DNA of 64,000 bases, taken from NCBI GenBank assembly GCA_964245045.1, contig CAXTLD010000007.1, forward strand, positions 1,971-65,970. The letters run 5' to 3'. This DNA comes from an uncultured Acidobacteriaceae bacterium (GTDB lineage Bacteria > Acidobacteriota > Terriglobia > Terriglobales > Acidobacteriaceae). The notes below the pieces were generated by a model, which saw nothing but the letters and a program-made list of their open reading frames with translations, was not told the origin of the DNA and did no database searches. The position numbers and the translations under genes were made by a program. Of this stretch, positions 1-33,770 are shown piece by piece. The stretch's first letter is position 1; the number at the start of each line of letters is the position of its first letter.

Positions 1-1131
1 CCCCCGGATGTAAATTCCGGCACGCTGCGCCGTCGAAGCGTCGAGCATAAGCGCCAGCAGCGGAGTGAATAGGTGCACAAGGGTGTGATAATACGACACG
101 GTCGGCAGACTTACCATGCAAACGGTAACGCCGAGCAGTTGGTTGGTCAGTGGCAATCTCGCGAGCTTTCTGAAGAAGGCCCATATGAAGAGGCTCGCTC
201 CGCCGAGGTAATAAGGAAAAGTGAGATTGGACGAGGATGTGTGAGCGATCTGTGTTGCAAGTTTCACAAAGGAGAACGCTGAATGATTCGCGACCAGTTC
301 GCGGAAGCTCCACTCGGAGGCGCGCAGGTGCTGGTAGCCAAACACGTTGTGCAGCGAGCCATGCCAGGCCACGGTGACCGTAGGGCCCATCCAGTACAGC
401 GATAGCCAGGAGACCCCAAGAAAGACGGCGGCACCAACTATTAGTGCACCGTACCGCTTTTTTGGGAACAAGAGGGTAAGCAAGAGTAGCGGATATAACT
501 TGACCGCTGCGGCTGCACCCCACAGGCCCGCTGCCAGGGAATACCTTTGACCGAAGAAGGCATACGTGCCGGTGCTCGCTAGTATCCACACGGCTAATTC
601 GATATTTCCCTGATGTAGCAGCCGCTGTACGGGAAAGGAGATCAGGAGAAGAGACGCTGGTAGAAGGATTGCCACGCTTGGATGAACCCCGAGTCGGCCT
701 AAGGTGCGGCCTACGCCAAAGAGCACCGTGCCCAACCAGGCGATCGCAACCGTGAGGAACACAAAGGTAGGGTGCGGAACGAAGTAAAGCGCGGCAAGCA
801 AGGCAGAAGCAAACGGAGGATAGGCCACGGCGGAGAACATGGCAGCGGGAAGTGACGCAGGTGGTGTGTTGTAGAAGAACGCCGCATGGTGGAGTGATTG
901 AAACGTCGCGGGATACTCCATAAGGTCCCCCATCAAAAGATCGCTTAGGGCATCCCAACGAGGTCTAGGCAGGCCGGCGTGGTGCAGTCCCCAACTGAAA
1001 AGGAGCGACACGGCAAACGCGCCCAGACACACCATCCAAAAAAGACGTATTGGAGGCGGCAACGGAGTGAACCCGACCTGAGGGACGTCACCGTTGCGTA
1101 CTGTTCGTATGACGAGTGCCGCTGATCCCAC
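1..1131 (-). CDS. GT87/DUF2029-like membrane glycosyltransferase (GT-C fold); 3' end runs off the window, start uncertain (GTG 1131 or ATG 1035/933)
   Basis: Manual translation of the minus frame is open from the stop at 1165-1167 to position 1: ...MGDLMEYPATFQSLHH...AVAYPPFASAL...LLHQGNIELAVWIL...AAAVKLYPLLLL..., many TM segments. The YPP, GNIE and KLYP motifs are typical of GT87. Absent from the ORF track because there is no stop in the window. Confidence 0.75.
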   Translation of the reverse strand, partial: MGSAALVIRTVRNGDVPQVGFTPLPPPIRLFWMVCLGAFAVSLLFSWGLHHAGLPRPRWDALSDLLMGDLMEYPATFQSLHHAAFFYNTPPASLPAAMFSAVAYPPFASALLAALYFVPHPTFVFLTVAIAWLGTVLFGVGRTLGRLGVHPSVAILLPASLLLISFPVQRLLHQGNIELAVWILASTGTYAFFGQRYSLAAGLWGAAAAVKLYPLLLLTLLFPKKRYGALIVGAAVFLGVSWLSLYWMGPTVTVAWHGSLHNVFGYQHLRASEWSFRELVANHSAFSFVKLATQIAHTSSSNLTFPYYLGGASLFIWAFFRKLARLPLTNQLLGVTVCMVSLPTVSYYHTLVHLFTPLLALMLDASTAQRAGIYIRG

Positions 1132-1267
1132 ATCGTTCAGAATGCCTTTGATCGGACGCGGATGTCACCTACACAAAAGTGGCACACGGAATCGACACTA
1201 TTGCAGCTAGAATTCGTGTCGGTCCTAGATTTTGGGCGATTGTTGCCTATGAGTAAAGCTGAGATCG

Positions 1268-1858
1268 ATGGCGAAGCCTAGTATGCACCGAATAATCACG
1301 CATGGGACTGCGGCTGAATCGGGCGCGGTGAAAGTTCCGGGTTTGCGGAAGGGCTATCGTCTTCGTGAAGCAGCAATGGCCCAACTGGCAGATGGGCCTC
1401 CGGCGCGCTGTACAAATTTGGTGAGCGGCGACGTTTGCGGGGAGGGGGGAGCTAGCCTCTTGGAATTGGCTCTGTTGACACCAATCCTTCTTTTGCTGCT
1501 GGCGGGGTCCGTGGACCTGGGCCAAGTTTGTTATGTCGCCATTGAACTATCTGCCGCCGCAAGTGCCGGGGCCGAATATGGCAGCCAAAACCCAACGGAT
1601 ATGACGGGTATGCAGAGGGCTGTTACCCTGAGTGCGACCAACTTGACTGGAGTTAGCTCGACTGCGAACTGGGGATGTGAGTGCTCGGATGGTACATCCG
1701 CCTCTCTCACGTGCAGTGCAAATCCGACCTGCGCTACGACCCGTGTCAAGTATGTGGTTGTGAGTGCGTCCTTGAACTATGTGCCCGTCCTCGGGCTTCC
1801 TGGTCTGCCCACGAGATATCCACTTGCAAGCACTGCGCGGCTACGCGCGGCGGAGTGA
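1268..1858 (+). CDS. tadE: TadE/TadG-like minor pseudopilin (true start may be downstream, e.g. ATG 1376)
   Basis: G-ASLLELALLTPILLLLLAGSVDLG prepilin-like motif, followed by a Cys- and Ser/Thr-rich domain; lies in the tad locus. Confidence 0.85.
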   Translation: MAKPSMHRIITHGTAAESGAVKVPGLRKGYRLREAAMAQLADGPPARCTNLVSGDVCGEGGASLLELALLTPILLLLLAGSVDLGQVCYVAIELSAAASAGAEYGSQNPTDMTGMQRAVTLSATNLTGVSSTANWGCECSDGTSASLTCSANPTCATTRVKYVVVSASLNYVPVLGLPGLPTRYPLASTARLRAAE

Positions 1859-2394
1859 ATGCGAGGTCCACTGTGATCCAGCGCTCCGGAAGTGGCTCAT
1901 TAGCTATGCACGCACACAAGTTTGTGAACGCTGATTCAGGTAGTGCTTCGGTGGAGTTCGCGGCCTCCGCCATACTACTCTTCACCATCCTATTCGGCAT
2001 CGTGGAATGCTCACGGGCCGTCTATGTTTACCACTTCGTGGGTAACGCGAGCGAAGAAGCGGCGCGCTATGCCATGGTGCGAGGGGCTTCTTGGTCCAGC
2101 TCCTGTATCTCGGCAACCGCTTCCAACTGTGCGGCCACGAGCACTAGCCTAAATCTTTTCGTGCAATCGATAGCTCCTGCTGGTGTATCGAGCTCGAACC
2201 TGCACGGGTTCGCCACCTGGCCCGGAACCAGTATTACTGGAGCCACTTGCTTGTCCTCGGGTTCTGCGTCAACCAACAGCGTTGGCTGCACTGTGTCGGT
2301 AACGGTGAACTATCGTTTTGCATTTGTTTCTCCCTTGTTGCCTCAGATCGCACTGCGCTTGGTTAGCACCTCACAGGTGACCATTGTTCAGTGA
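1855..2394 (+). CDS. tadE: TadE-like minor pseudopilin
   Basis: G-SASVEFAASAILLFTILFGIVE...EAARYA motif. GTG at 1855 overlaps the upstream TGA (GTGA); alternative ATG at 1906. Confidence 0.85.
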   Translation: MNARSTVIQRSGSGSLAMHAHKFVNADSGSASVEFAASAILLFTILFGIVECSRAVYVYHFVGNASEEAARYAMVRGASWSSSCISATASNCAATSTSLNLFVQSIAPAGVSSSNLHGFATWPGTSITGATCLSSGSASTNSVGCTVSVTVNYRFAFVSPLLPQIALRLVSTSQVTIVQ

Positions 2395-3679
2395 ACAAGC
2401 GCTGGTTTCCGGTACGGCTTCGCAGTCTAGGGATCGCACCCTCCTGCTCTTCGTCATAGCGTCGTTGCTGCGCCTACTCGTAGTGGCCTATAGCCTTAGC
2501 CACTTTGGGCCTGGCTGGTTCTTTGCGCGAGGATCTGAAATGGGATTCTTGGCCCAATCTATCCTCCGTGGCGACGGTCTGGGCTCCCCGTTCGGCCCGC
2601 ACACAGGTCCCACGGCGATTGTCGCGCCGGGCTATCCTCTCTTTGTCAGCGGGGTGTTTCGCATACTGGGTACTTACAGCGCCGCTTCGGCATGGTTCCT
2701 TATGTTTTCCAACTGCGTTCTAAATGGCGCTACGGACGCGCTTATTTACAGAGCGGCACGGAACCTGGCGAGTGAACCGAGCGCTTTTGCCGTGGCCTTA
2801 ATTTGGGCCTGTTCTCCGCCTCTTCTCTGGATGCCAACGATCTTCTGGGAAACAAACGTGTCGGCCGCGCTGCTCCTATCATGTGTCTGCCTAACACCTC
2901 GTCAGTCGAGAAGTAGATCGTCGCTCTTGTGGGCTGGGTCTGGTATGCTTTGCGCTATCACGGGACTGATTAACCCCGCCCTACTTCCTTCGCAGCTTAT
3001 CTTGGCAGGCTATGGGGTGAGCCGGGGAGCCATCGGCAAACGCGAGTGGCAGGCGGGAACCATCTACTGTTCCAGCTTCCTCCTCTTTTTTCTGCCCTGG
3101 CCGACGCGCAATCAGCGCGTATTCCACTCCTTCATTCCCACGAGAACCACATTGGGTCTGGAACTGTGGATGGGCAATCAGCTCGGAGGGCAGGGGTATC
3201 TCGAGCCAGCCTTGTTTCCGACCTACAACGAGGTCGAGCTGTCTAAATACAAGCGGCTCGGAGAACCTCAGTACATGGCGCAAAAGCAGGAGCTAGCCCT
3301 CAGGTACATCCGCGCCCATCCCGTGCATTTCCTGGTGCTATCCATTCGAAGGTGTACCAGATTTTGGCTTGGAGGTGGCACGCGGGACGGATCCCCATTG
3401 CTGATGCTACACGGAACGTTCTTGTTCGTCCTGGGTGCTTCTGGTTTGGTCCTGTTGTGGCGTGAAGGAAGGAGAGATCTGTGGAGTTGCACACTAATCC
3501 CACTTATCCTGTTCCCTTTGCCCTACTACGCTACTCATGCGGAGTTCAAATACCGTCTGATTGTGGATCCTCTACTGATGGTTCTGGGGGCGGGAGCTAT
3601 CGATCTGGTACGCCCGCCTGGGCGCAGTCGCGTTGTCGCCCCAGCGAGTGTACTTGCCCTCTTGCCGGAGCCGGAGTAG
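2384..3679 (+). CDS. GT39/ArnT-PMT-like membrane glycosyltransferase (GT-C fold)
   Basis: Polytopic membrane protein: GSEMGFLAQSILRGDGLGSPFGPHTGPTAIVAPGYPLF, WETNVSA, NPALL, WPTRNQRVFHSFIP..GLELWMGN, RYRL-like KYRL. Overlaps the tadE stop. Confidence 0.7.
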   Translation: MFSEQALVSGTASQSRDRTLLLFVIASLLRLLVVAYSLSHFGPGWFFARGSEMGFLAQSILRGDGLGSPFGPHTGPTAIVAPGYPLFVSGVFRILGTYSAASAWFLMFSNCVLNGATDALIYRAARNLASEPSAFAVALIWACSPPLLWMPTIFWETNVSAALLLSCVCLTPRQSRSRSSLLWAGSGMLCAITGLINPALLPSQLILAGYGVSRGAIGKREWQAGTIYCSSFLLFFLPWPTRNQRVFHSFIPTRTTLGLELWMGNQLGGQGYLEPALFPTYNEVELSKYKRLGEPQYMAQKQELALRYIRAHPVHFLVLSIRRCTRFWLGGGTRDGSPLLMLHGTFLFVLGASGLVLLWREGRRDLWSCTLIPLILFPLPYYATHAEFKYRLIVDPLLMVLGAGAIDLVRPPGRSRVVAPASVLALLPEPE

Positions 3680-3799
3680 CCGCAATTGGAAGCAAGCAAG
3701 AACGTAGCTCCGCGGGCATTTCAAGTCAAGTACACGCAACTAGCCTAGGATCGCGTCGCCCGAGCCTGGACGGCTATGTCCCCTTCGTGCTAGGACTGG

Positions 3800-25261: not shown

Positions 25262-25690
25262 TTACTTCGCCACCGGCTTGCCTTCCTGCACATAGTTCTT
25301 GTTCCACCCCGGGATCTCCACCACATACGCGCCGGGCTTTTCGATCACGGACTGGCAGCCAAGGCGCGAATTTAACTGCAAACCGGGTGCGAGATCCAGA
25401 CGATCCAGCTCCTTTTCCTCAGCCTCGGAGAGGGCCTTCGCGCCTTCCAGCACAAACAGATGGCAGGTGGTGCAGGCACACACCCCACCGCACGCATGGT
25501 CCAAGAAGACGCCGTAGTTCTCCGCGACGTCCAGAAAGCTCATCGGCTCGCCGTGCCCGTCGTAGGGCAGGGAACCGAACGGAAACTCAACCGTCTTGTT
25601 TTCAGGCTTAAAGGTCACCCGCACTATGTTGGGCGCGGGCGGAACGGAAAGGTCGATCTCGGGCAAAGCTTGCAGTTCGTGTTCGGACAT
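25262..25690 (-). CDS. fdx: 2Fe-2S ferredoxin (ISC type)
   Basis: HACGGVCACTTCH and SRLGCQ. Confidence 0.93.
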   Translation of the reverse strand: MSEHELQALPEIDLSVPPAPNIVRVTFKPENKTVEFPFGSLPYDGHGEPMSFLDVAENYGVFLDHACGGVCACTTCHLFVLEGAKALSEAEEKELDRLDLAPGLQLNSRLGCQSVIEKPGAYVVEIPGWNKNYVQEGKPVAK

Positions 25691-25717: not shown

Positions 25718-27811
25718 CTAGTCTTCTGTCGACGCGCCCGGCGTCTCCGGATCCGCCTCGGCCGCTACAACGGCATCCGTCGCCCGGGGAGCATCTTCGA
25801 TCTGCGCCGGCGCAAACGGATGCGGCGCCGTCGGCCCCTCGCCCAGGCTTTCGCCGGCCGCCGCCATGGTCTTGCCGCCGATTGCTCCCGTCACCGCGGA
25901 ATCCATCATCAGCTCAGCCAGCCGACGCGTCTTCTTGTCCAACTGCTCAATCGCGTTCCGAATGACGCGATGGTCGTCGCCCGCGATCGACGCCTTCAAC
26001 TCCAGCGCCGCCGCCTTGATCTCCTGGTGCTCAATCGAGGTCAGCTGCTGCCACACAGGCTGCCCCATCGCCTTTTCCACGGCCTCATGGATCGTCTCGG
26101 CTTCGTTTTTGGCCTCGATCACCTGCCGTTCGTGCATGTCCTGCTCCGCCATATCAAAGCTCTCCAGGATCATCGATTCCACTTGCTCGTCGGTGAGGCC
26201 GTAGGTCGGTTTCACCTCGACCTGCGCTTCCGTGCCGCTGCGCTGCTCGCGCGCGCTCACATGAAGGATGCCGTTGGCGTCGATCAGGAACTTGACCTCG
26301 ATGCGCGGCAAACCGGCCATCATCGGCGGGATGCCCTTCAGATCGAAACGCGCCAACGACCGGCAGTCCTTGGCCATCTCTCGTTCACCCTGCAGCACAT
26401 GGATCGCCACGTTCGTCTGCCCATCCACGCCCGTGGTGAAGTGTTCGGTCGCGCTGGCCGGCACGGTCGAGTTCCGCTGGATGATCTTCGCCACCACGCC
26501 CCCCAGCGCCTCAATGCCCAGGCTGAGCGGCGTCACGTCCAGCAGCAAGAGGTCGTCGGTCGCGGCGTTCTCCTGCCCGGAAAGAATCTGCGCCTGCACC
26601 GCCGCGCCGAGTGCAACCACCTCGTCCGGGTTCAGTTCGGTGTGGAGCTTCTTGCCGCGAGCTTCGAGGTTGAACAGCCTGGACACCAGCGCCCGGACCG
26701 CCGGAATGCGGGTCGACCCACCCACAATCACAACTTCCTCGATGTCCTCAGGCGTCAGCTGCGCATCCTTTAGCGCCTGCCGCACCGGCCCGGCGGTTCG
26801 CTCGATCACCGGCGCAATCAGCTGCTCAAACTGCTGCCGAGAGATCTCCCGCAAGTAGCTCCTGCTGTCGTTATCGCCTCTTTGGTTGTCACTCCCGATT
26901 TGTTTGTCATTCCCGAAGGGAATCTGCGTTCCTTCAGCGCCGCCCGAAATCTCCAAGGCAATCCGCGCGGTCTCCCCCGAACTCAACGCAATTTTCGCCT
27001 CGATCACCGCCTGCCGCAGCGCCTGCACCACCTCCGGTTGCCCGCTTACATCCACGCCGAGGTCACCCCGGATGTCGTCCAGCGCCACGGCCATCAGCAG
27101 GTTATCCAGGTCGTCCCCGCCCAGGTGCGTGTCACCGCCCGTAGCGATCACCTCGAAGATGCCCTCATGCAACTTGAGTATGGAGATGTCAAAGGTGCCC
27201 CCACCGAAGTCATACACGGCGATCACACCATCCGTGCCGCCATGCAGCTTGTCCAGCCCATACGCGAGCGCGGCCGCGGTGGGCTCATTCACCAGCCGCA
27301 GCACCTCCAGACCCGCTATGCGACCGGCGTCCTTAGTAGCCTGGCGCTGCGCGTCGTTGAAGTAGGCCGGCACCGTCACCACCGCCTTGGTCACCGGCGT
27401 TCCAAAGAACCGCTCCGCATTGCGCCGCAACTGCAGCAATACGTAGGCGGAGATCTCGGGCGGCGTCAGCGTCAACCCACCCACGTTCAGCTTCAGCACC
27501 TCGCCGGGCTGCAACCCTTCCGCCAAGTGGAAAGGAAACAGCTTCAACTCGGGCACAACATCGGCTAAGTCGCGCCCCATCAGCCGCTTGATGCTGTACA
27601 CGGCATTCTCCGGGTGGGTCAGCAGTACGTTGCGCGCCGCATTGCCCACGGCGAACCCATGCGCCGTTTCCCCATCGAACGCCACCACGCTCGGCACAAT
27701 GGCGGAGCCGTCTTCACCGGGGATTACGGCCGGCTGATCGCCCTGCATGTACGCCACCAGCGAATTCGTCGTTCCCAGGTCAATGCCAACCACGCGTTCC
27801 AGTTCAGCCAC
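25718..27811 (-). CDS. hscA: Fe-S cluster Hsp70 chaperone HscA
   Basis: [65 protein letters not shown]; upstream of fdx. Start set at GTG 27811. Confidence 0.88.
26863..26927. repeat. Palindromic REP-like element plus degenerate 18-nt tandem units inside hscA
   Basis: ATTCCC-GAA-GGGAAT hairpin at 26909-26923; TTGGTTGTCACTCCCGAT and TTGTTTGTCATTCCCGAA units, encoding [18 protein letters not shown]. Confidence 0.65.
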
Positions 27812-28021
27812 AGCCACTCTCCCCGCCCCGGCGCACGGCCGTGCCACGCGTTTGTCACTTCGAAAAATCGGAGTCCTCTCTACAAGATGCCCGGCGGACG
27901 CCCGGTGATGCTGCCGAACCTTCCTGCCCCACTACGGCCACACACCGCAGCCCGCCCGACCGGCGCACACCCGCGCTTCAGGCCCCATCCGCGGGGTGCG
28001 TTTGGCTGCATCCAACGGCGG

Positions 28022-28538: not shown

Positions 28539-29705
28539 TCACAACACTGGATCCGTATTGGCCTCCAGCGTCGCAACCCTGCCCGCCTCACGGTCGTGAA
28601 CCCGACCACGGATCTGCAGAAACGGTCGTTCCACGCCCAGGTAGAGGCAACCGGCCACAAGCAGACACGCACCCAGATACACCGGAAGCATGGCGTAGCT
28701 CCTATCCGGCATCCCCGGAACAAGGTGCCGCAGTAGGTGTACCGTCTCCTTGTGCGTGAGATACAGGCTGAAGGCCAACGTGGCCAGCAGCCTGGCCCCC
28801 GGCACGTGCACCCGCGCCAGCCACCCGTTCCCGGAGACCGCCGACGCCGTCAACAGGGCGAAGCCACAACCCAGCAGCGGATACCCAATCACGTCGAACA
28901 CAGCGGCTCGGCCTGTCACGGACGTTGTTCGATCAACCGACAGCCAACCGGCGACGCCGACCAGCAGCACACCCCCGACCGCGAGGCTGTGGCCGCGCTT
29001 GCCCAGACTTGCCGCCCACGCAGGGCGAAACGTCTGCATCAGCGCCAGAGCCACACCGGCCAGCAGACCATCCAGCCGGACGTAGGTGGGGTAGTAGAGG
29101 TTCTCGAAGTATCGCGTGGAGAACATTTCGTCATCGGGCCCGAGTGGGCGCAAGGTGTGTACCAGCACATAGGCCCGCAGTCCCATCCCGGCCAGCAAAA
29201 CGAGGCTTAGCACGGCATACACCCTCCACGCTGCCGGCCGACGCATCAGCAACGCCGTGAGCAGCGGCAACGCCAAGTAAAAGTGCTTTTCCACGCACAA
29301 GGACCAGGCATGCGAAAACGCATGGTTCTGGCTGAAGTCGATTAACAGGTTTTCCGTGAACGTGAGGAACTGCCACGGGGGCTGTAAGCCGGGAGACTCA
29401 CGCCAGGCCGGCACCGAGACATAGAGCAGAAGCACTACGAGGTAAGCAGGCAGGATGCGGTACGCCCGCTTGCGGTAAAACGCCCAAACCTCGACCGCTC
29501 TTCCGTGCCGATACGGACGAAACAGCTGCAGCCCAATCAGGTACCCACTTAGAACGAAGAACAAATCCACGCCCATCCATCCGAAGTGCGTGGCCGGTTG
29601 CAACACCTCCGGGAAGTGGCTCCCCAGGTGAAACGGCATAACGGCAAGGATTGCCGCCGCTCGCAGCGTGTCCAGGCCATGCAGGCGACCAGGGGCGGGT
29701 TTCAC
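28539..29705 (-). CDS. Acyltransferase family 3 (OafA-like)
   Basis: GLDTLRAAA, GWMGVDLFFVLSGYLI, RAYRILPAY, HAWSLCVEKHFY, FSLYLTH. Confidence 0.9.
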   Translation of the reverse strand: MKPAPGRLHGLDTLRAAAILAVMPFHLGSHFPEVLQPATHFGWMGVDLFFVLSGYLIGLQLFRPYRHGRAVEVWAFYRKRAYRILPAYLVVLLLYVSVPAWRESPGLQPPWQFLTFTENLLIDFSQNHAFSHAWSLCVEKHFYLALPLLTALLMRRPAAWRVYAVLSLVLLAGMGLRAYVLVHTLRPLGPDDEMFSTRYFENLYYPTYVRLDGLLAGVALALMQTFRPAWAASLGKRGHSLAVGGVLLVGVAGWLSVDRTTSVTGRAAVFDVIGYPLLGCGFALLTASAVSGNGWLARVHVPGARLLATLAFSLYLTHKETVHLLRHLVPGMPDRSYAMLPVYLGACLLVAGCLYLGVERPFLQIRGRVHDREAGRVATLEANTDPVL

Positions 29706-30613
29706 CGACGCCTCGCCGTCGCGGCCTCGGCCTGCCTCCGGTACGCGGCGTCAAACGCCTGCTCCGCGCCGGTGGTCGCCTCTCGGTACCCCACCGGGTC
29801 GACCCAGACCTCGTCCCCTTCCTGGGGCATACGCTGCAACTTCCGGAGCATGCCGAAGGTACTTCCGTGGGAGGCCAGGAAGATGTCGCAAGGCAAGGAC
29901 CGGAGCAGCGCAAACGTATGCCGAAAGTCCTCGGCTATGCCCGGGTAGGACGGCCGCCTACGCCCCCTCTGCATCAGCCGGTACTCCGAAAGCACGCTCC
30001 AACTGCCCACGATGACCACGTTGCGTCGCTTGCCGGCGGGTTCGCCCGGCACGTGCACCTGCATTGTCCAGGTCGTGCATCCGCGTGTGTGCCCGGCGGT
30101 GCGATGCGCCGTGAGCGCCACCCCGCCCAACGTGACCGCTTCGCCGTCGTGCAGCACGTGGTCCACGTGCGCCGGAGGGAACTGCGGCCTCGGCCCAAAG
30201 GCGAAGTCGGTACGCCCGCCGCTCTCGGCCACGTCAGCATCGCCATCCATGACCTCATTCTTCGCGCCGGTCTCGCGCACGATCTCGGCAGCCCCACCGG
30301 CGTGGTCCACGTGATCATGGCTGACCAGAAGGACTTTCGTATCGCGCCATGGAAAGCCCAGTTGCTCCACGCTGCGGCGGATCTGCGGCGGCGAGCTGGT
30401 GTAGTTGGCGTTGATCAGGATGTTGCCGGCGGGCGTCGTCACCGGATACGCGGCCAGGTCCCGACTGCCGACGTAGTACAGTCCGTCGGCAATCTGGAAG
30501 GGCGGCAGCGCCGTCGTCCAGTCCGGATTGACCGCGGCCGAGACTTCCTGCCTGCCGCACAACAGGGCAAGCAGGATCAGTGCGACTCCGAAGCAACGAC
30601 AGCGTGGGACCAT
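29702..30613 (-). CDS. Subclass B3 metallo-beta-lactamase (exported)
   Basis: Signal peptide, PPFQIADGLYYVG, SHDHVDHAGG (HxHxDH), GHTRGCTTW, CDIFLASH. Start at ATG 30613 or 30649. Confidence 0.85.
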   Translation of the reverse strand: MVPRCRCFGVALILLALLCGRQEVSAAVNPDWTTALPPFQIADGLYYVGSRDLAAYPVTTPAGNILINANYTSSPPQIRRSVEQLGFPWRDTKVLLVSHDHVDHAGGAAEIVRETGAKNEVMDGDADVAESGGRTDFAFGPRPQFPPAHVDHVLHDGEAVTLGGVALTAHRTAGHTRGCTTWTMQVHVPGEPAGKRRNVVIVGSWSVLSEYRLMQRGRRRPSYPGIAEDFRHTFALLRSLPCDIFLASHGSTFGMLRKLQRMPQEGDEVWVDPVGYREATTGAEQAFDAAYRRQAEAATARRR

Positions 30614-30688
30614 ACTCTCTGGTAGCAGAAAGTCTGTTGTGCGAGACAAGGGGTACCGAATACGACAACGCCGTCGACGCCGAACCCG

Positions 30689-31037: not shown

Positions 31038-33770
31038 TCATTTATACGCCCGCTCCGCCTGTACGGTCCCGTCCGGATGCAGCAAAAAGGTCTCGGCCCC
31101 TAGCCGATCCGTGCGAAACGTGCGAACATGAGCCGCTTCGAGTCGCTCCAAGACCTCCCATCGCGGGTGCCCGAACGTATTGTGCTGGCCTACGCTGATC
31201 ACGGCCATCGCGGGCTTTACCGCTTCGAGAAACTCCGGGTTCGTGGACGTGCGACTGCCGTGGTGCCCCACCTTCAGCAGCGTGACGGGCCTGAGGTCCC
31301 CACGCGCTACCATGGCAGCCTCGCTCGGCGCCTCCGCGTCGCCTTCCAGCAGCACGCTGGCCCGCTGCCAGTCCAGGCGCATCACCAGGGAGTCGTCGTT
31401 GCGCGCTTCGCCGTAGTTGGCGTACCCGGGTTGCGGAGAAAGCACGGTCGCCCGCATGCCGCCCCAGTCCACCACGTCCCCTGCGGCCAGCCAGCGAACC
31501 TGGATGTTCAGCTCTTCCGCCTGCGCCAGCAACTCCCGCAGTGCCGTGGAATGCCCAGGCTCCAGGCTCAACCACAGCTCCCGTGGCCGCAGGTCGCGCA
31601 ACACCGCCGGCATGCCTCCAATGTGGTCGCTGTGGCCGTGGCTGATCACCACCGCGTCCAGGCGCCGCACCTGCCTGGACCACAGGTAGGGCGCAACCAC
31701 CTCCTCGCCCACGTCCCACTTGGCCGCGACCCTCCCAACCGGGCCGCCCGCGTCCACCAGCATCGTCCGGCCTTCGGGGGAGACCACCAGCAGGGAGTCG
31801 CCTTGCCCCACGTCGATGGCCGTAACCTCCAACGTCCCAGCATGAATCAATGGCGAGGCCGGCCAAAGCACAACGACCGGCAACAACAGTGCTGCCACAA
31901 GGCCGCCCCAGGCCAGCGCCGGCCGCCGTGCCCGCAACGCCCATACGGCAAAGGCGGCCAGAACACCGCAGACCACCATGGCCGCCCAGGGCGGCGCGGG
32001 AACCCGCAGGTCGCCTAATTCCGCTCTTCCGAGCCTATCCACCACTGCCCGCACCAGGTGCAGCAGACCAGCGGTCACCCCGGAAGGGAGCGCTGCCGCC
32101 CAGGGGCTCACCAGCCCCAGCGCAAACGTCACAGCCGCCGACCCGGCCAGCAACACCGCAAGCGGAGCCACAAACAGGTTGCCGGGCATCGCCAACGGCA
32201 CCATGCGATGGAAGTACACGGCCATGGGCAGCACCATGCACAGCTCAATGGCCGCGGAGAGAAGTACGGCTTCGGCCACCGTGAGGCTCAAACGAACGGC
32301 TGCCCCCGGCAGCGCTCCCGCCCAGCGCCAGCCGGTGAGGTCCCGGCAAAGACCGCCGGCCATGCGCAGCCGGACGCGCCTTGCGCCCACCACGGGCGGC
32401 AGAAAGGCGTCCATCTCCACTGTGTCCAGCCCATGAACCGCCAGCCGCCACTGTCCCAGAACGCGCTCGCCGAGCGGGACGGCCATGCCCGCCACCGCGA
32501 TGATGACCAGCGCCGTCATCTGGAAGCTGGCCTCGTACAACGCGCGCGGGTCGGCCACCAGGATCAGCAGCGCCGCCGTGCCCAAGGCATTCAGCCCCGA
32601 TCGTTGCCGGTCCAGCGCCCGCGCGATGAGGTAGAGGGAACTCATCGCCAGCGCCCGCTCGGCCGGCACCCCGAATCCTGACAGCAGCGCATACCCCAGG
32701 CCAAGCGCAATGGTCATCCCAACCGCAGGGAACTCGGGCACACGGCATCGCCGCAGCAACCAGAAGACGGCCCCGGTCAGCAGGGCCACATGCAGCCCGG
32801 AGACCACAAACAGGTGAAAGGTTCCGGTTCGTTCAAAGCCCGCGCGCAGCTCGGCATTCAGCGCGGTCCGGTCCCCAAACAGCATCGCCGCGAGCATGCC
32901 CGCGTCCTCCGCCGTAAGCCGCAACGGCCTCGGGAAATCTCTAATCGGGACCATACGCGGCAGGCTTTCCAGTCGGGAGGCCGCCCAGTGCTGCCACTGA
33001 CTGAGCCGACATCGCAGACCCGAACGCTCCTGCCGCAGCAGCCGCACTTTGTTCACCTGCGCCGTTCCCAGCGCGCCAACCCCCTGCCCCAGCAGCCAAT
33101 CCGCATAGGAGAACGCCCCTGGATCGCGGTACACCTCCGGCTCGCGCAGGCGCACCGGCGCCTCCACCACGTCGCCACAGCCGAGCGGCACCACGCCGCC
33201 GAACACCGTCAACCGCAGTCCACCCTGGACAGGCCTCATCGTGGAAACGTCCGGGGTTACATCCTCCACCGCGTCTAAGGCAAGATCCACGCCCTGGATC
33301 ATCGTGCCGTCGTCGGCCTCCGCGCCGCCCGGCTCCACTTGCCAGGACGCGACCTCCGCGAAGGGCCTTCCATTCACCGGCTTGGCGTCCCGTAAGGAAC
33401 GCACCGTGACCACACGGCCGCGAACCGTCCGGCTCAAGCCGTCGGCGTAGCTATGCACAGCCTGTTGCCGGTCCAGCGGGGCCTGCATCTGCGCGCACCA
33501 ACAGCCCACACTGGCCCACAACCCCAGCACAGCTATCCAACCCGCACGCGGCGCCCAGCGCAGCGCCGCCCAGGCAATCGCCAGCAGAACCACCACGCTC
33601 AGCGCGAGAGACGCCGGCGGATGCCACTGCCGCGCGCACAGCACACCCCCGACAAACGCCAGCGCCGCCGAAAGCATGGGTATCCCCCGGGCCCGCAAAG
33701 GCTCTACGGGCGAGCGCCCGTTCATCCAGAAGGTGGAGGCACCAACGTTCGACATACGACGCGTACGCAC
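31038..33770 (-). CDS. comEC: DNA internalisation competence protein ComEC/Rec2
   Basis: OB-like domain, TGTFHLFVVSGLHV, SFQMT, IDVGQGDS, SHGHSDHIGG, KVGHHGS. Exact start uncertain. Confidence 0.92.
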   Translation of the reverse strand: MRTRRMSNVGASTFWMNGRSPVEPLRARGIPMLSAALAFVGGVLCARQWHPPASLALSVVVLLAIAWAALRWAPRAGWIAVLGLWASVGCWCAQMQAPLDRQQAVHSYADGLSRTVRGRVVTVRSLRDAKPVNGRPFAEVASWQVEPGGAEADDGTMIQGVDLALDAVEDVTPDVSTMRPVQGGLRLTVFGGVVPLGCGDVVEAPVRLREPEVYRDPGAFSYADWLLGQGVGALGTAQVNKVRLLRQERSGLRCRLSQWQHWAASRLESLPRMVPIRDFPRPLRLTAEDAGMLAAMLFGDRTALNAELRAGFERTGTFHLFVVSGLHVALLTGAVFWLLRRCRVPEFPAVGMTIALGLGYALLSGFGVPAERALAMSSLYLIARALDRQRSGLNALGTAALLILVADPRALYEASFQMTALVIIAVAGMAVPLGERVLGQWRLAVHGLDTVEMDAFLPPVVGARRVRLRMAGGLCRDLTGWRWAGALPGAAVRLSLTVAEAVLLSAAIELCMVLPMAVYFHRMVPLAMPGNLFVAPLAVLLAGSAAVTFALGLVSPWAAALPSGVTAGLLHLVRAVVDRLGRAELGDLRVPAPPWAAMVVCGVLAAFAVWALRARRPALAWGGLVAALLLPVVVLWPASPLIHAGTLEVTAIDVGQGDSLLVVSPEGRTMLVDAGGPVGRVAAKWDVGEEVVAPYLWSRQVRRLDAVVISHGHSDHIGGMPAVLRDLRPRELWLSLEPGHSTALRELLAQAEELNIQVRWLAAGDVVDWGGMRATVLSPQPGYANYGEARNDDSLVMRLDWQRASVLLEGDAEAPSEAAMVARGDLRPVTLLKVGHHGSRTSTNPEFLEAVKPAMAVISVGQHNTFGHPRWEVLERLEAAHVRTFRTDRLGAETFLLHPDGTVQAERAYK

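Follow-up and report, generated by a model that had tools for sequence, protein, structure and literature searches.

An in-frame palindromic insert in hscA

The stretch analysed here, referred to as the window, is 64,000 nucleotides (nt) of DNA from an uncultured Acidobacteriaceae bacterium (assembly GCA_964245045.1, contig CAXTLD010000007.1, positions 1,971 to 65,970), and the subject is a short palindromic element within hscA, the gene for the Hsp70 chaperone of iron-sulfur (Fe-S) cluster assembly. An original prediction, made from the sequence alone, had proposed that a palindromic element sits in frame in the ATPase domain of HscA, and this holds: an 81-nt insert containing a hairpin lies in an open reading frame (ORF) that remains intact (Table 1), and both flanks of the insert are HscA within one open frame. 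Relative to the xGGKQ turn of empty HscA orthologues, the net gain is about 25 residues, and the G+C content of the insert is 52%, against 65% in the rest of hscA.

Read on the minus strand from 26938 down to 26858, the insert is GCTGAAGGA-ACGCAG-ATTCCC-TTC-GGGAAT-GAC-AAACAAATC-GGGAGTGACAACCAAAGA-GGCGATAACGACAGCAGG-AGC, and its 27-mer occurs a single time within the window, with shuffles yielding no matches. It was also proposed that the hairpin is followed by two decaying 18-nt copies, and one of these is real. Tandem Repeats Finder and a second repeat search both identify two units (26881–26898 and 26899–26916) that are 88–89% identical, matching at 16 of 18 positions, and their content is the 3' stem arm plus the beginning of the A-rich tail, duplicated. 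The other proposed copy is marginal, because 8% of composition-matched shuffles match equally well, and it would be better described as part of a purine-rich variable tail. Purine-rich, GCARAR-like tails of variable length also trail other copies of the repeat.

The host ORF matches the Pfam HSP70 family at 3e-197. Against the NCBIfam HscA model PRK05183 it scores 701 bits, above the curated cut-off of 620, and against TIGR01991 it scores 694.6, slightly below the cut-off of 708.55. With a score above one curated cut-off (PRK05183) and a ferredoxin gene downstream, the ORF can be assigned to HscA on sequence grounds. The gene is single-copy in its genome, a 3.95-Mb draft of 191 contigs in which the only other Hsp70 is DnaK, at 47% identity. 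A gene of the Fer2 type also follows hscA in one related contig, and neither hscB nor iscU was seen adjoining hscA.

Table 1. Coordinates in the window of the hscA insert, its parts, its host gene and nearby genes
Feature	Position	Strand	Evidence or remark
hscA (Fe-S cluster assembly Hsp70 chaperone), host of the insert	25718..27847	minus	intact 709-residue ORF
In-frame insert, 81 nt = 27 codons	26858..26938	minus	protein and DNA alignment with 23 same-genus orthologues
Purine-rich leader GCTGAAGGA	26930..26938	minus	similar leaders on intergenic copies, e.g. gcgaaggaACGCAG, gcagaagcggaACGCAG
24-nt repeat core ACGCAGATTCCCTTCGGGAATGAC	26906..26929	minus	0 mismatches to genome-wide consensus, as in 17 other copies
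Hairpin ATTCCC-TTC-GGGAAT, 6-bp stem and 3-nt loop	26909..26923	minus	direct sequence reading
Two 18-nt tandem units TCGGGAATGACAAACAAA / TCGGGAGTGACAACCAAA	26881..26916	minus	Tandem Repeats Finder: period 18, 2.0 copies, 88% match
Putative third, decayed 18-nt unit	26863..26880	minus	marginal; 8–9 of 18 positions match
2Fe-2S ferredoxin gene, directly downstream of hscA (ISC-type context)	25262..25690	minus	NCBIfam fdx_isc 1e-23, below curated cut-off
ORF of subclass B3 metallo-beta-lactamase type	29702..30649	minus	above NCBIfam cut-off (280 vs 240 bits)
ComEC/Rec2 gene	31038..33770	minus	

The insert core belongs to a dispersed repeat family

The core of the HscA insert is one copy of a dispersed palindromic repeat, which we name type A. 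The original prediction had, from recall, likened the hairpin to an intergenic repeat of Acidobacteriaceae and expected many, mainly intergenic, copies in the genome; both expectations were confirmed, and the single-copy outcome that would have spoken against them was not found. At up to 4 mismatches, the core occurs in 53 copies (18 of them exact), and an nhmmer profile recovers 61 copies (E < 1e-3), 45 of which are intergenic. The consensus reads rrA-ACGCAG-ATTCCC-TTC-GGGAAT-GAC-AA, after which comes an A/G-rich tail whose length varies, and the units are singletons or direct tandems, the latter spaced 42–53 nt and most often 45. Stem pairing is kept in 91–100% of the 53 copies, and one stem pair covaries, being T-A in 41 copies and C-G in 8, with a T-G intermediate in 3. 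Most copies lie 0–60 nt from the 3' end of a gene (48 placements at 3' ends vs 23 at 5' ends), 33 of the 48 are antisense to the adjoining gene, and divergent spacers are depleted (2/39 vs 22% background). An Rfam scan of 26700–27100, at E up to 10, gave no relevant match and two chance matches to long non-coding RNAs. Another abundant hairpin family of the same genome, GGCACGGCTGAAGCCGTGCC, has approximately 100 strand-matches at up to 2 mismatches and is often found near type A copies.

At up to 2 mismatches, 17 of the 25 genomes examined from the window's genus carry type A and counts run from 0 to 176 per genome, a complete 4.6-Mb Granulicella metagenome-assembled genome having at least 176; no copy is found in 16 genomes of a sister family in the same order. 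Exact 24-mers are found in Granulicella records (G. rosea, G. paludicola, G. mallensis, G. aggregans and many metagenome-assembled genomes) as well as in Edaphobacter, Bryocella and unclassified Acidobacteriaceae, and all such records are Acidobacteriaceae except one metagenome-assembled genome labelled Acetobacteraceae. In one relative (G003, loci L185–L192), type A often occurs as inverted pairs separated by 60–190 nt; these contain inner inverted repeats (ctcccgtt / aacgggag) and have long tails, purine-rich and hexamer-like, an arrangement that looks like a REPIN or a miniature inverted-repeat transposable element (MITE). Three public Acidobacteriaceae contigs (L034, L088 and L105) hold dense type A arrays of 5–12 exact cores per 0.3–1.1 kb, at spacings of 38, 45 and ~70 nt, which indicates that type A expands in tandem outside genes too.

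The insert maps to a predicted surface turn of the ATPase domain

Alignment to solved DnaK structures puts the insert in the gap between DnaK residues ~288 and 289, at the ...ITADA(S/T)GPKH... turn. On the established domain map of E. coli DnaK, in which subdomain IIB spans roughly residues 228–310, this turn falls in IIB. In an AlphaFold model of HscA built with 93 homologues, most of the ATPase domain has a predicted local distance difference test score (pLDDT) of 85–94. Residues 291–313 have a pLDDT of ~40 (below 50) and no secondary structure, and they lie between strands 281–288 and 317–324, which are themselves flanked by helices 259–278 and 325–337. A shallower run with 24 close sequences gave the same placement in a model that was poor overall (pLDDT 58). 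The alignment and the models thus give the insert a predicted position, as had been anticipated for a IIB loop, at the turn of a beta-hairpin of ATPase subdomain IIB, on the surface and outside the folded core, with the insert peptide itself predicted to be disordered.

The DnaK of the same genome retains the canonical, uninterrupted turn. The face of IIB in question contacts GrpE in DnaK, and HscA functions without a nucleotide-exchange factor. Such a difference would account for the tolerance of insertions at this turn in HscA and not in DnaK.

Type A copies lie in frame in other predicted proteins

Peptides like QIPFGND were expected elsewhere in the proteome, and they occur in six proteins besides HscA. 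In all seven predicted proteins, the motif Q[IV]P.G[ND]D derives from type A read in one shared phase (TQIPFGND...). Placed by Pfam domains, the copies lie between the N-terminal and radical-SAM domains of RlmN, between the pterin-binding and B12 cap domains of MetH, between the exonuclease and polymerase domains of PolA, between the 3' DNA-binding and helicase domains of PriA, in the C-terminal tail of TrpA, and between the M-domain and the second ATPase domain of ClpB, alongside the turn of the IIB beta-hairpin in HscA. A LigD primase-polymerase protein carries type A in its tail in a second open phase. Seven of the eight sense copies in coding sequence share one phase, and the third sense phase contains TGA.

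ClpB shows a presence/absence pattern like that of HscA. The linker is short in about 20 orthologues in the genus. Type A is found at this position in five genomes, the window's and four others, and a variant hairpin in two; the ClpB copy in the window's genome is visibly decayed. Copies in many proteins, together with the ClpB pattern, show that the phenomenon is genome-wide and genus-wide and not peculiar to hscA.

On another contig of the same genome (C12, positions 2–3736), a class II ribonucleotide reductase-like protein of 1244 residues has the peptide SSPERGSAS twice in its C-terminal linker. One occurrence lies under a weak antisense type A match (nhmmer, 21.7 bits), and more repeated low-complexity peptides are found nearby.

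The HscA loop is filled and empty among orthologues

Among the 23 same-genus HscA orthologues, 13 have an empty turn of 4–5 residues of the xGGKQ type (e.g. ELPEGKQ-YLREI). In six the turn is longer by five residues, and the remaining four have larger inserts at exactly the insert position. The alignment therefore delimits the insert as the original prediction had proposed, and an ancient loop conserved in all orthologues, the outcome it had named as contrary, is not what is seen. In G023, the nearest relative whose allele bears an insert, the element is a variant: its ends are unchanged and its central hairpin is longer. In a complete 4.6-Mb genome (G018), three tandem type A units occupy the site (KQVPFGNDKQK...QQIPFGDDKQK...), one of them with a compensated ATCCCC/GGGGAT stem. 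A different palindrome, CCCACGTCTCGCTTCTCAGACGTGGG, which we call type C, fills the loop in G012, where it forms a 46-copy family with clear stem covariation. The loop of G004 holds a third palindrome. Since it has only two copies in that genome, we did not count it by itself as the insertion of a repeat family; ASSSAKVG peptides resembling this loop recur in other HscA loops.

A careful small tree, built without the loop columns, groups the window's HscA with two empty-site species (L013 and L014, its two nearest), and the G023/G018 pair is sister to this group, which requires two or more events. With a branch length of 0.074, the insert-bearing HscA is comparable to its empty relatives (0.081 and 0.12).

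For a larger sample, residues 240–400 were used as query against a large protein collection, which returned 120 homologues, 113 of them full-length. In this set, whose filled fraction is inflated for the reason given below, the loop is a short turn (typically xGGKQ) in 59 of 113, type A in one to three units (...E[KT]QIPFGND...) in 35, type C (GAPRLASETWD...) in 6, type B-like (...ASSSAKVG...) in 2, and other inserts, including the hairpin-repeat peptides QVSPLRPSASGRDD and QVLRSAQDD, in 11. Non-type-A inserts are thus found in 19 of 113, at least six of them from a different palindromic family, and one public homologue (P0077) has type A and type C units side by side, with 59 residues between the conserved anchors. 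On the large tree, type A undergoes at least 16 state changes, of which at least 10 are forced by well-supported branches, and label shuffles average 30. At least 10 gains or losses being needed, the HscA loop is a recurrent insertion site. Across species, insert length ranges from 17 to 43 extra residues, drawn from several unrelated families.

Interpretation and alternatives

We consider it highly probable that a short, non-autonomous palindromic repeat was inserted in frame at the IIB turn of HscA, as one instance of a genome-wide colonisation of coding sequence. This reading rests on what the data show: a repeat in many copies, orthologous sites that are empty, further proteins with in-frame copies, the position of the loop, and the recurrence. 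The mobile unit would comprise a purine-rich leader, ACGCAG, the 6-bp hairpin, GAC and an A-rich variable tail, ~40–50 nt in all, and its range would be limited to the Granulicella group within Acidobacteriaceae. A partial tandem duplication of the 3' half of the HscA unit would have followed insertion. With a length divisible by three and a phase free of stop codons, the element would be translated as a Gly/Asn/Asp/Gln/Lys-rich, probably disordered loop of 27 residues that protrudes from the chaperone and leaves the fold undisturbed, and hscA would remain intact, with a normal rate of evolution. Since the HscA copy does not differ from the consensus, it is either young or homogenised by conversion.

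Type A probably behaves as a selfish or neutral DNA hairpin repeat, and we infer that it spreads as a DNA hairpin through a trans-acting enzyme. Most copies would persist in 3' untranslated spacers, and coding copies would survive only if their length is a multiple of three, their phase is open, and their peptide is hydrophilic and located in a loop, linker or tail. The HscA turn would be unusually permissive, and possibly preferred, with other species carrying one to three type A units or other palindromic families at this position.

Several points weigh against this interpretation. A scan for target-site duplications over all left and right boundary pairs of 50 type A copies gave the same result as a permuted control. 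Type A copies on both sides were seen at none of 34 loci of the PF01797 (Y1) transposase family, examined in 16 genus genomes together with 1.5 kb of sequence to either side. The census of copies relied on gene calls from a simple home-made codon-usage caller (2954 genes, 82% coding). The query for the large HscA set contained the insert, so the ranking favours insert-bearing proteins and overstates how often the loop is filled; FastTree was used for the large tree, with the loop columns excluded, and the type A state changes on this tree may be gains or precise losses, which look alike. Finally, that the peptide is kept in mature HscA and is near-neutral is something we infer from sequence.

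With regard to the mechanism of movement, a single type A copy lies near 2 of the 34 Y1 loci, as chance would give, and across the genus genomes the number of Y1 genes does not track type A copy number. A 45-nt unit with a 6-nt duplication, suggested by one filled/empty pair, was dropped because the 50-copy scan equals the permuted control. In a complete genome (G015), type A lies on one strand in 26 of 33 copies in one dnaA-defined half and 10 of 20 in the other; the copies form local clusters. The Y1 genes of the window's genome are flanked by other hairpin families. On contig C3 (~14.9–16.2 kb), an IS200-like/RAYT-like Y1 gene follows four tandem copies of a double hairpin, GCGGGCCAACGGCCCGC...CCTGGGGCAACGCCCCAGG, with an inverted copy behind it, and this locus is, by its layout, a REPtron-like arrangement. 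A second Y1 gene (189 residues; contig C77, 12.7–13.6 kb) has CCCATCC...GGGTGGG-type palindromes upstream, which resemble the palindrome in the HscA loop of G004. In G012 (contig C26, 271.4–272.3 kb), a Y1 match at 271575–271808 lies between direct type C copies at 271442 and 272253, which suggests that the type C family, unlike type A, has a linked transposase. Our guess, held tentatively and at somewhat less than even confidence, is that type A moves by a single-strand mechanism of the HUH/Y1 type, which would fit because there are no duplications, the stem is maintained and loss may be seamless.

The principal alternative is a single old insertion in the ancestor of the Granulicella group, inherited vertically and followed by repeated precise or near-precise losses and remodelling, in which case the loop would not be a recurrent target. 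All type A inserts share a common left junction (P-x-G, x-x-E, [KT]Q-IP...), filled alleles have E-I-P-A-G just upstream of the insert compared with E-L-P-x-G in empty ones, some loops look like deletion footprints (P0101, EIPAGAAEPARQ, and P0028), and on the small tree one gain and one loss are as parsimonious as two gains. The sequence GAGATTCCGGCGGGT resembles the type A core, which would fit an originally larger insert or native turn codons that themselves mimic the hairpin; this is offered as an idea and not as a result. However, the HscA copy in the window matches the consensus exactly while the ClpB copy is visibly decayed, although concerted evolution between copies could hide how old the insert is. 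In addition, the well-supported changes on the large tree, at least 10 in number, would all have to be losses that restore the canonical 5-residue turn, and other repeat families hold the same turn independently. On balance, we regard a single old insertion as somewhat unlikely.

Conversely, the IIB turn may be more than permissive. It could be a true integration hot spot into which at least three unrelated palindromic families insert repeatedly, and from which they excise precisely, across Acidobacteriaceae. The guide for insertion may then be the native P-x-G turn itself, whose quasi-palindromic codons, CTGCCCGAAGGCAAG, match 11 of 15 positions of the type A hairpin. If this were the case, hairpin repeats would be actively transposing in essential coding DNA and serving as interchangeable peptide cassettes. 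We think that a true hot spot is unlikely.

The insert might instead be kept for a function, either as an RNA hairpin in the hscA message (affecting its processing or stability, or pausing translation) or as a peptide through which IIB gains a new interaction. The stem of the family is maintained by compensatory changes, with G-T pairs tolerated, which hints at structure at the RNA level; the shared phase of seven of the eight sense copies in coding sequence and the occupation of the HscA loop in many lineages point the same way. Yet the length and sequence of the insert vary freely between species, many close relatives thrive without it, the proteins that host type A are functionally unrelated, and the region is predicted to be disordered, all of which makes a retained function improbable. 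That the insert is not mobile at all, being a lineage-specific low-complexity expansion of the loop or an assembly chimera that resembles the repeat by chance, is barely credible: the tail is of low complexity and partly tandem and the genome is a 191-contig draft, but the core matches a ~60-copy family at 24 of 24 nt, both flanks are HscA in one open frame, complete single-contig genomes carry the same element at the same codon, and most orthologues have an empty site.

Comparison with known systems

Colonisation of conserved proteins by in-frame palindromes has been best known from Rickettsia and a few REP-rich bacteria, and the present case brings it to free-living soil Acidobacteriaceae. 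The HscA loop offers a natural series within a chaperone of an essential pathway, from empty through one to three units to other families, in which the tolerance of an Hsp70 ATPase domain for foreign, disordered sequence can be followed, and which also lets one ask how such repeats move and whether useful protein variation arises from them. For annotation, length variation and low-complexity inserts in proteins of the Granulicella group, as well as many spurious small ORFs, can be traced to repeats of this kind.

The Rickettsia palindromic elements (RPE-1 to RPE-10), to which the original prediction had compared the insert, are ~100–150 bp long, the short ones ending in CGTC, and are found in obligate intracellular alphaproteobacteria with reduced genomes, as two later papers summarise (Ogata et al. 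2000 via PMC10969869, PMC3733652). The comparison stands for behaviour. Both are multi-copy palindromes in frame in many unrelated housekeeping genes that stay intact, HscA, RlmN, MetH, PolA, PriA, TrpA and ClpB in our case, and both insert a conserved peptide where the fold is thought to accommodate it. It does not extend to the sequence family and size: type A is ~40–50 nt long, has no sequence similarity to RPEs, carries no CGTC/GTAG tag, could not be tied to any transposase, is mostly intergenic, shares one loop with other repeat families, and occurs in free-living soil Acidobacteriaceae with genomes of 3–6 Mb.

GTAG- and CGTC-tagged repetitive extragenic palindromes (REPs) are stem-loops of 20–40 bp that recur tens to hundreds of times and mostly lie where a unidirectional or convergent spacer follows a gene (Di Nocera et al. 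2013, PMC3733652). A minority are intragenic, often in replication and repair genes, and CGTC REPs also exist without a dedicated transposase; Acidobacteria enter that paper only for tyrosine transposases flanked by terminal inverted repeats (PMC3733652). Type A is likewise a short stem-loop (6-bp stem, 3-nt loop, 24-nt conserved core) in many dispersed copies, mainly intergenic and downstream of genes, with a similar distribution over spacers, and its hosts include PolA, PriA and LigD. Unlike REPs, it has no GTAG/CGTC tag at the foot of the stem. Its feet are ACGCAG (5') and GACAA (3', reverse complement TTGTC), with an unpaired TGTC/GACA tag in 51 of 53 copies (T, not C, before GTC) and ACGCAG on the other side. 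The inverted type A pairs of G003, and the fact that other hairpin families of the genus flank Y1 genes, recall the REPIN/RAYT system (RAYT, REP-associated tyrosine transposase; Bertels and Rainey 2011, PMC3116915). In contrast to that system, no Y1/RAYT gene among the 34 loci of the 16 genus genomes is flanked by type A, and in the window's genome the units stand singly or in direct tandem. Among bacterial MITEs, those with open frames (ERIC, Nezha, BOX; PMC10969869) are also small and non-autonomous and can fuse in frame with host ORFs. A MITE has terminal inverted repeats as well as target-site duplications, whereas type A is a single short hairpin with no duplication detected, and inverted pairs are found in G003 only.

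A literature search of limited scope returned no description of the type A element, nor of in-frame repeat insertions in Acidobacteria. Type A is a previously undescribed family that behaves like RPEs and intragenic REPs and is a member of neither, and its most unusual feature is that several repeat families recurrently use one loop of an Hsp70.

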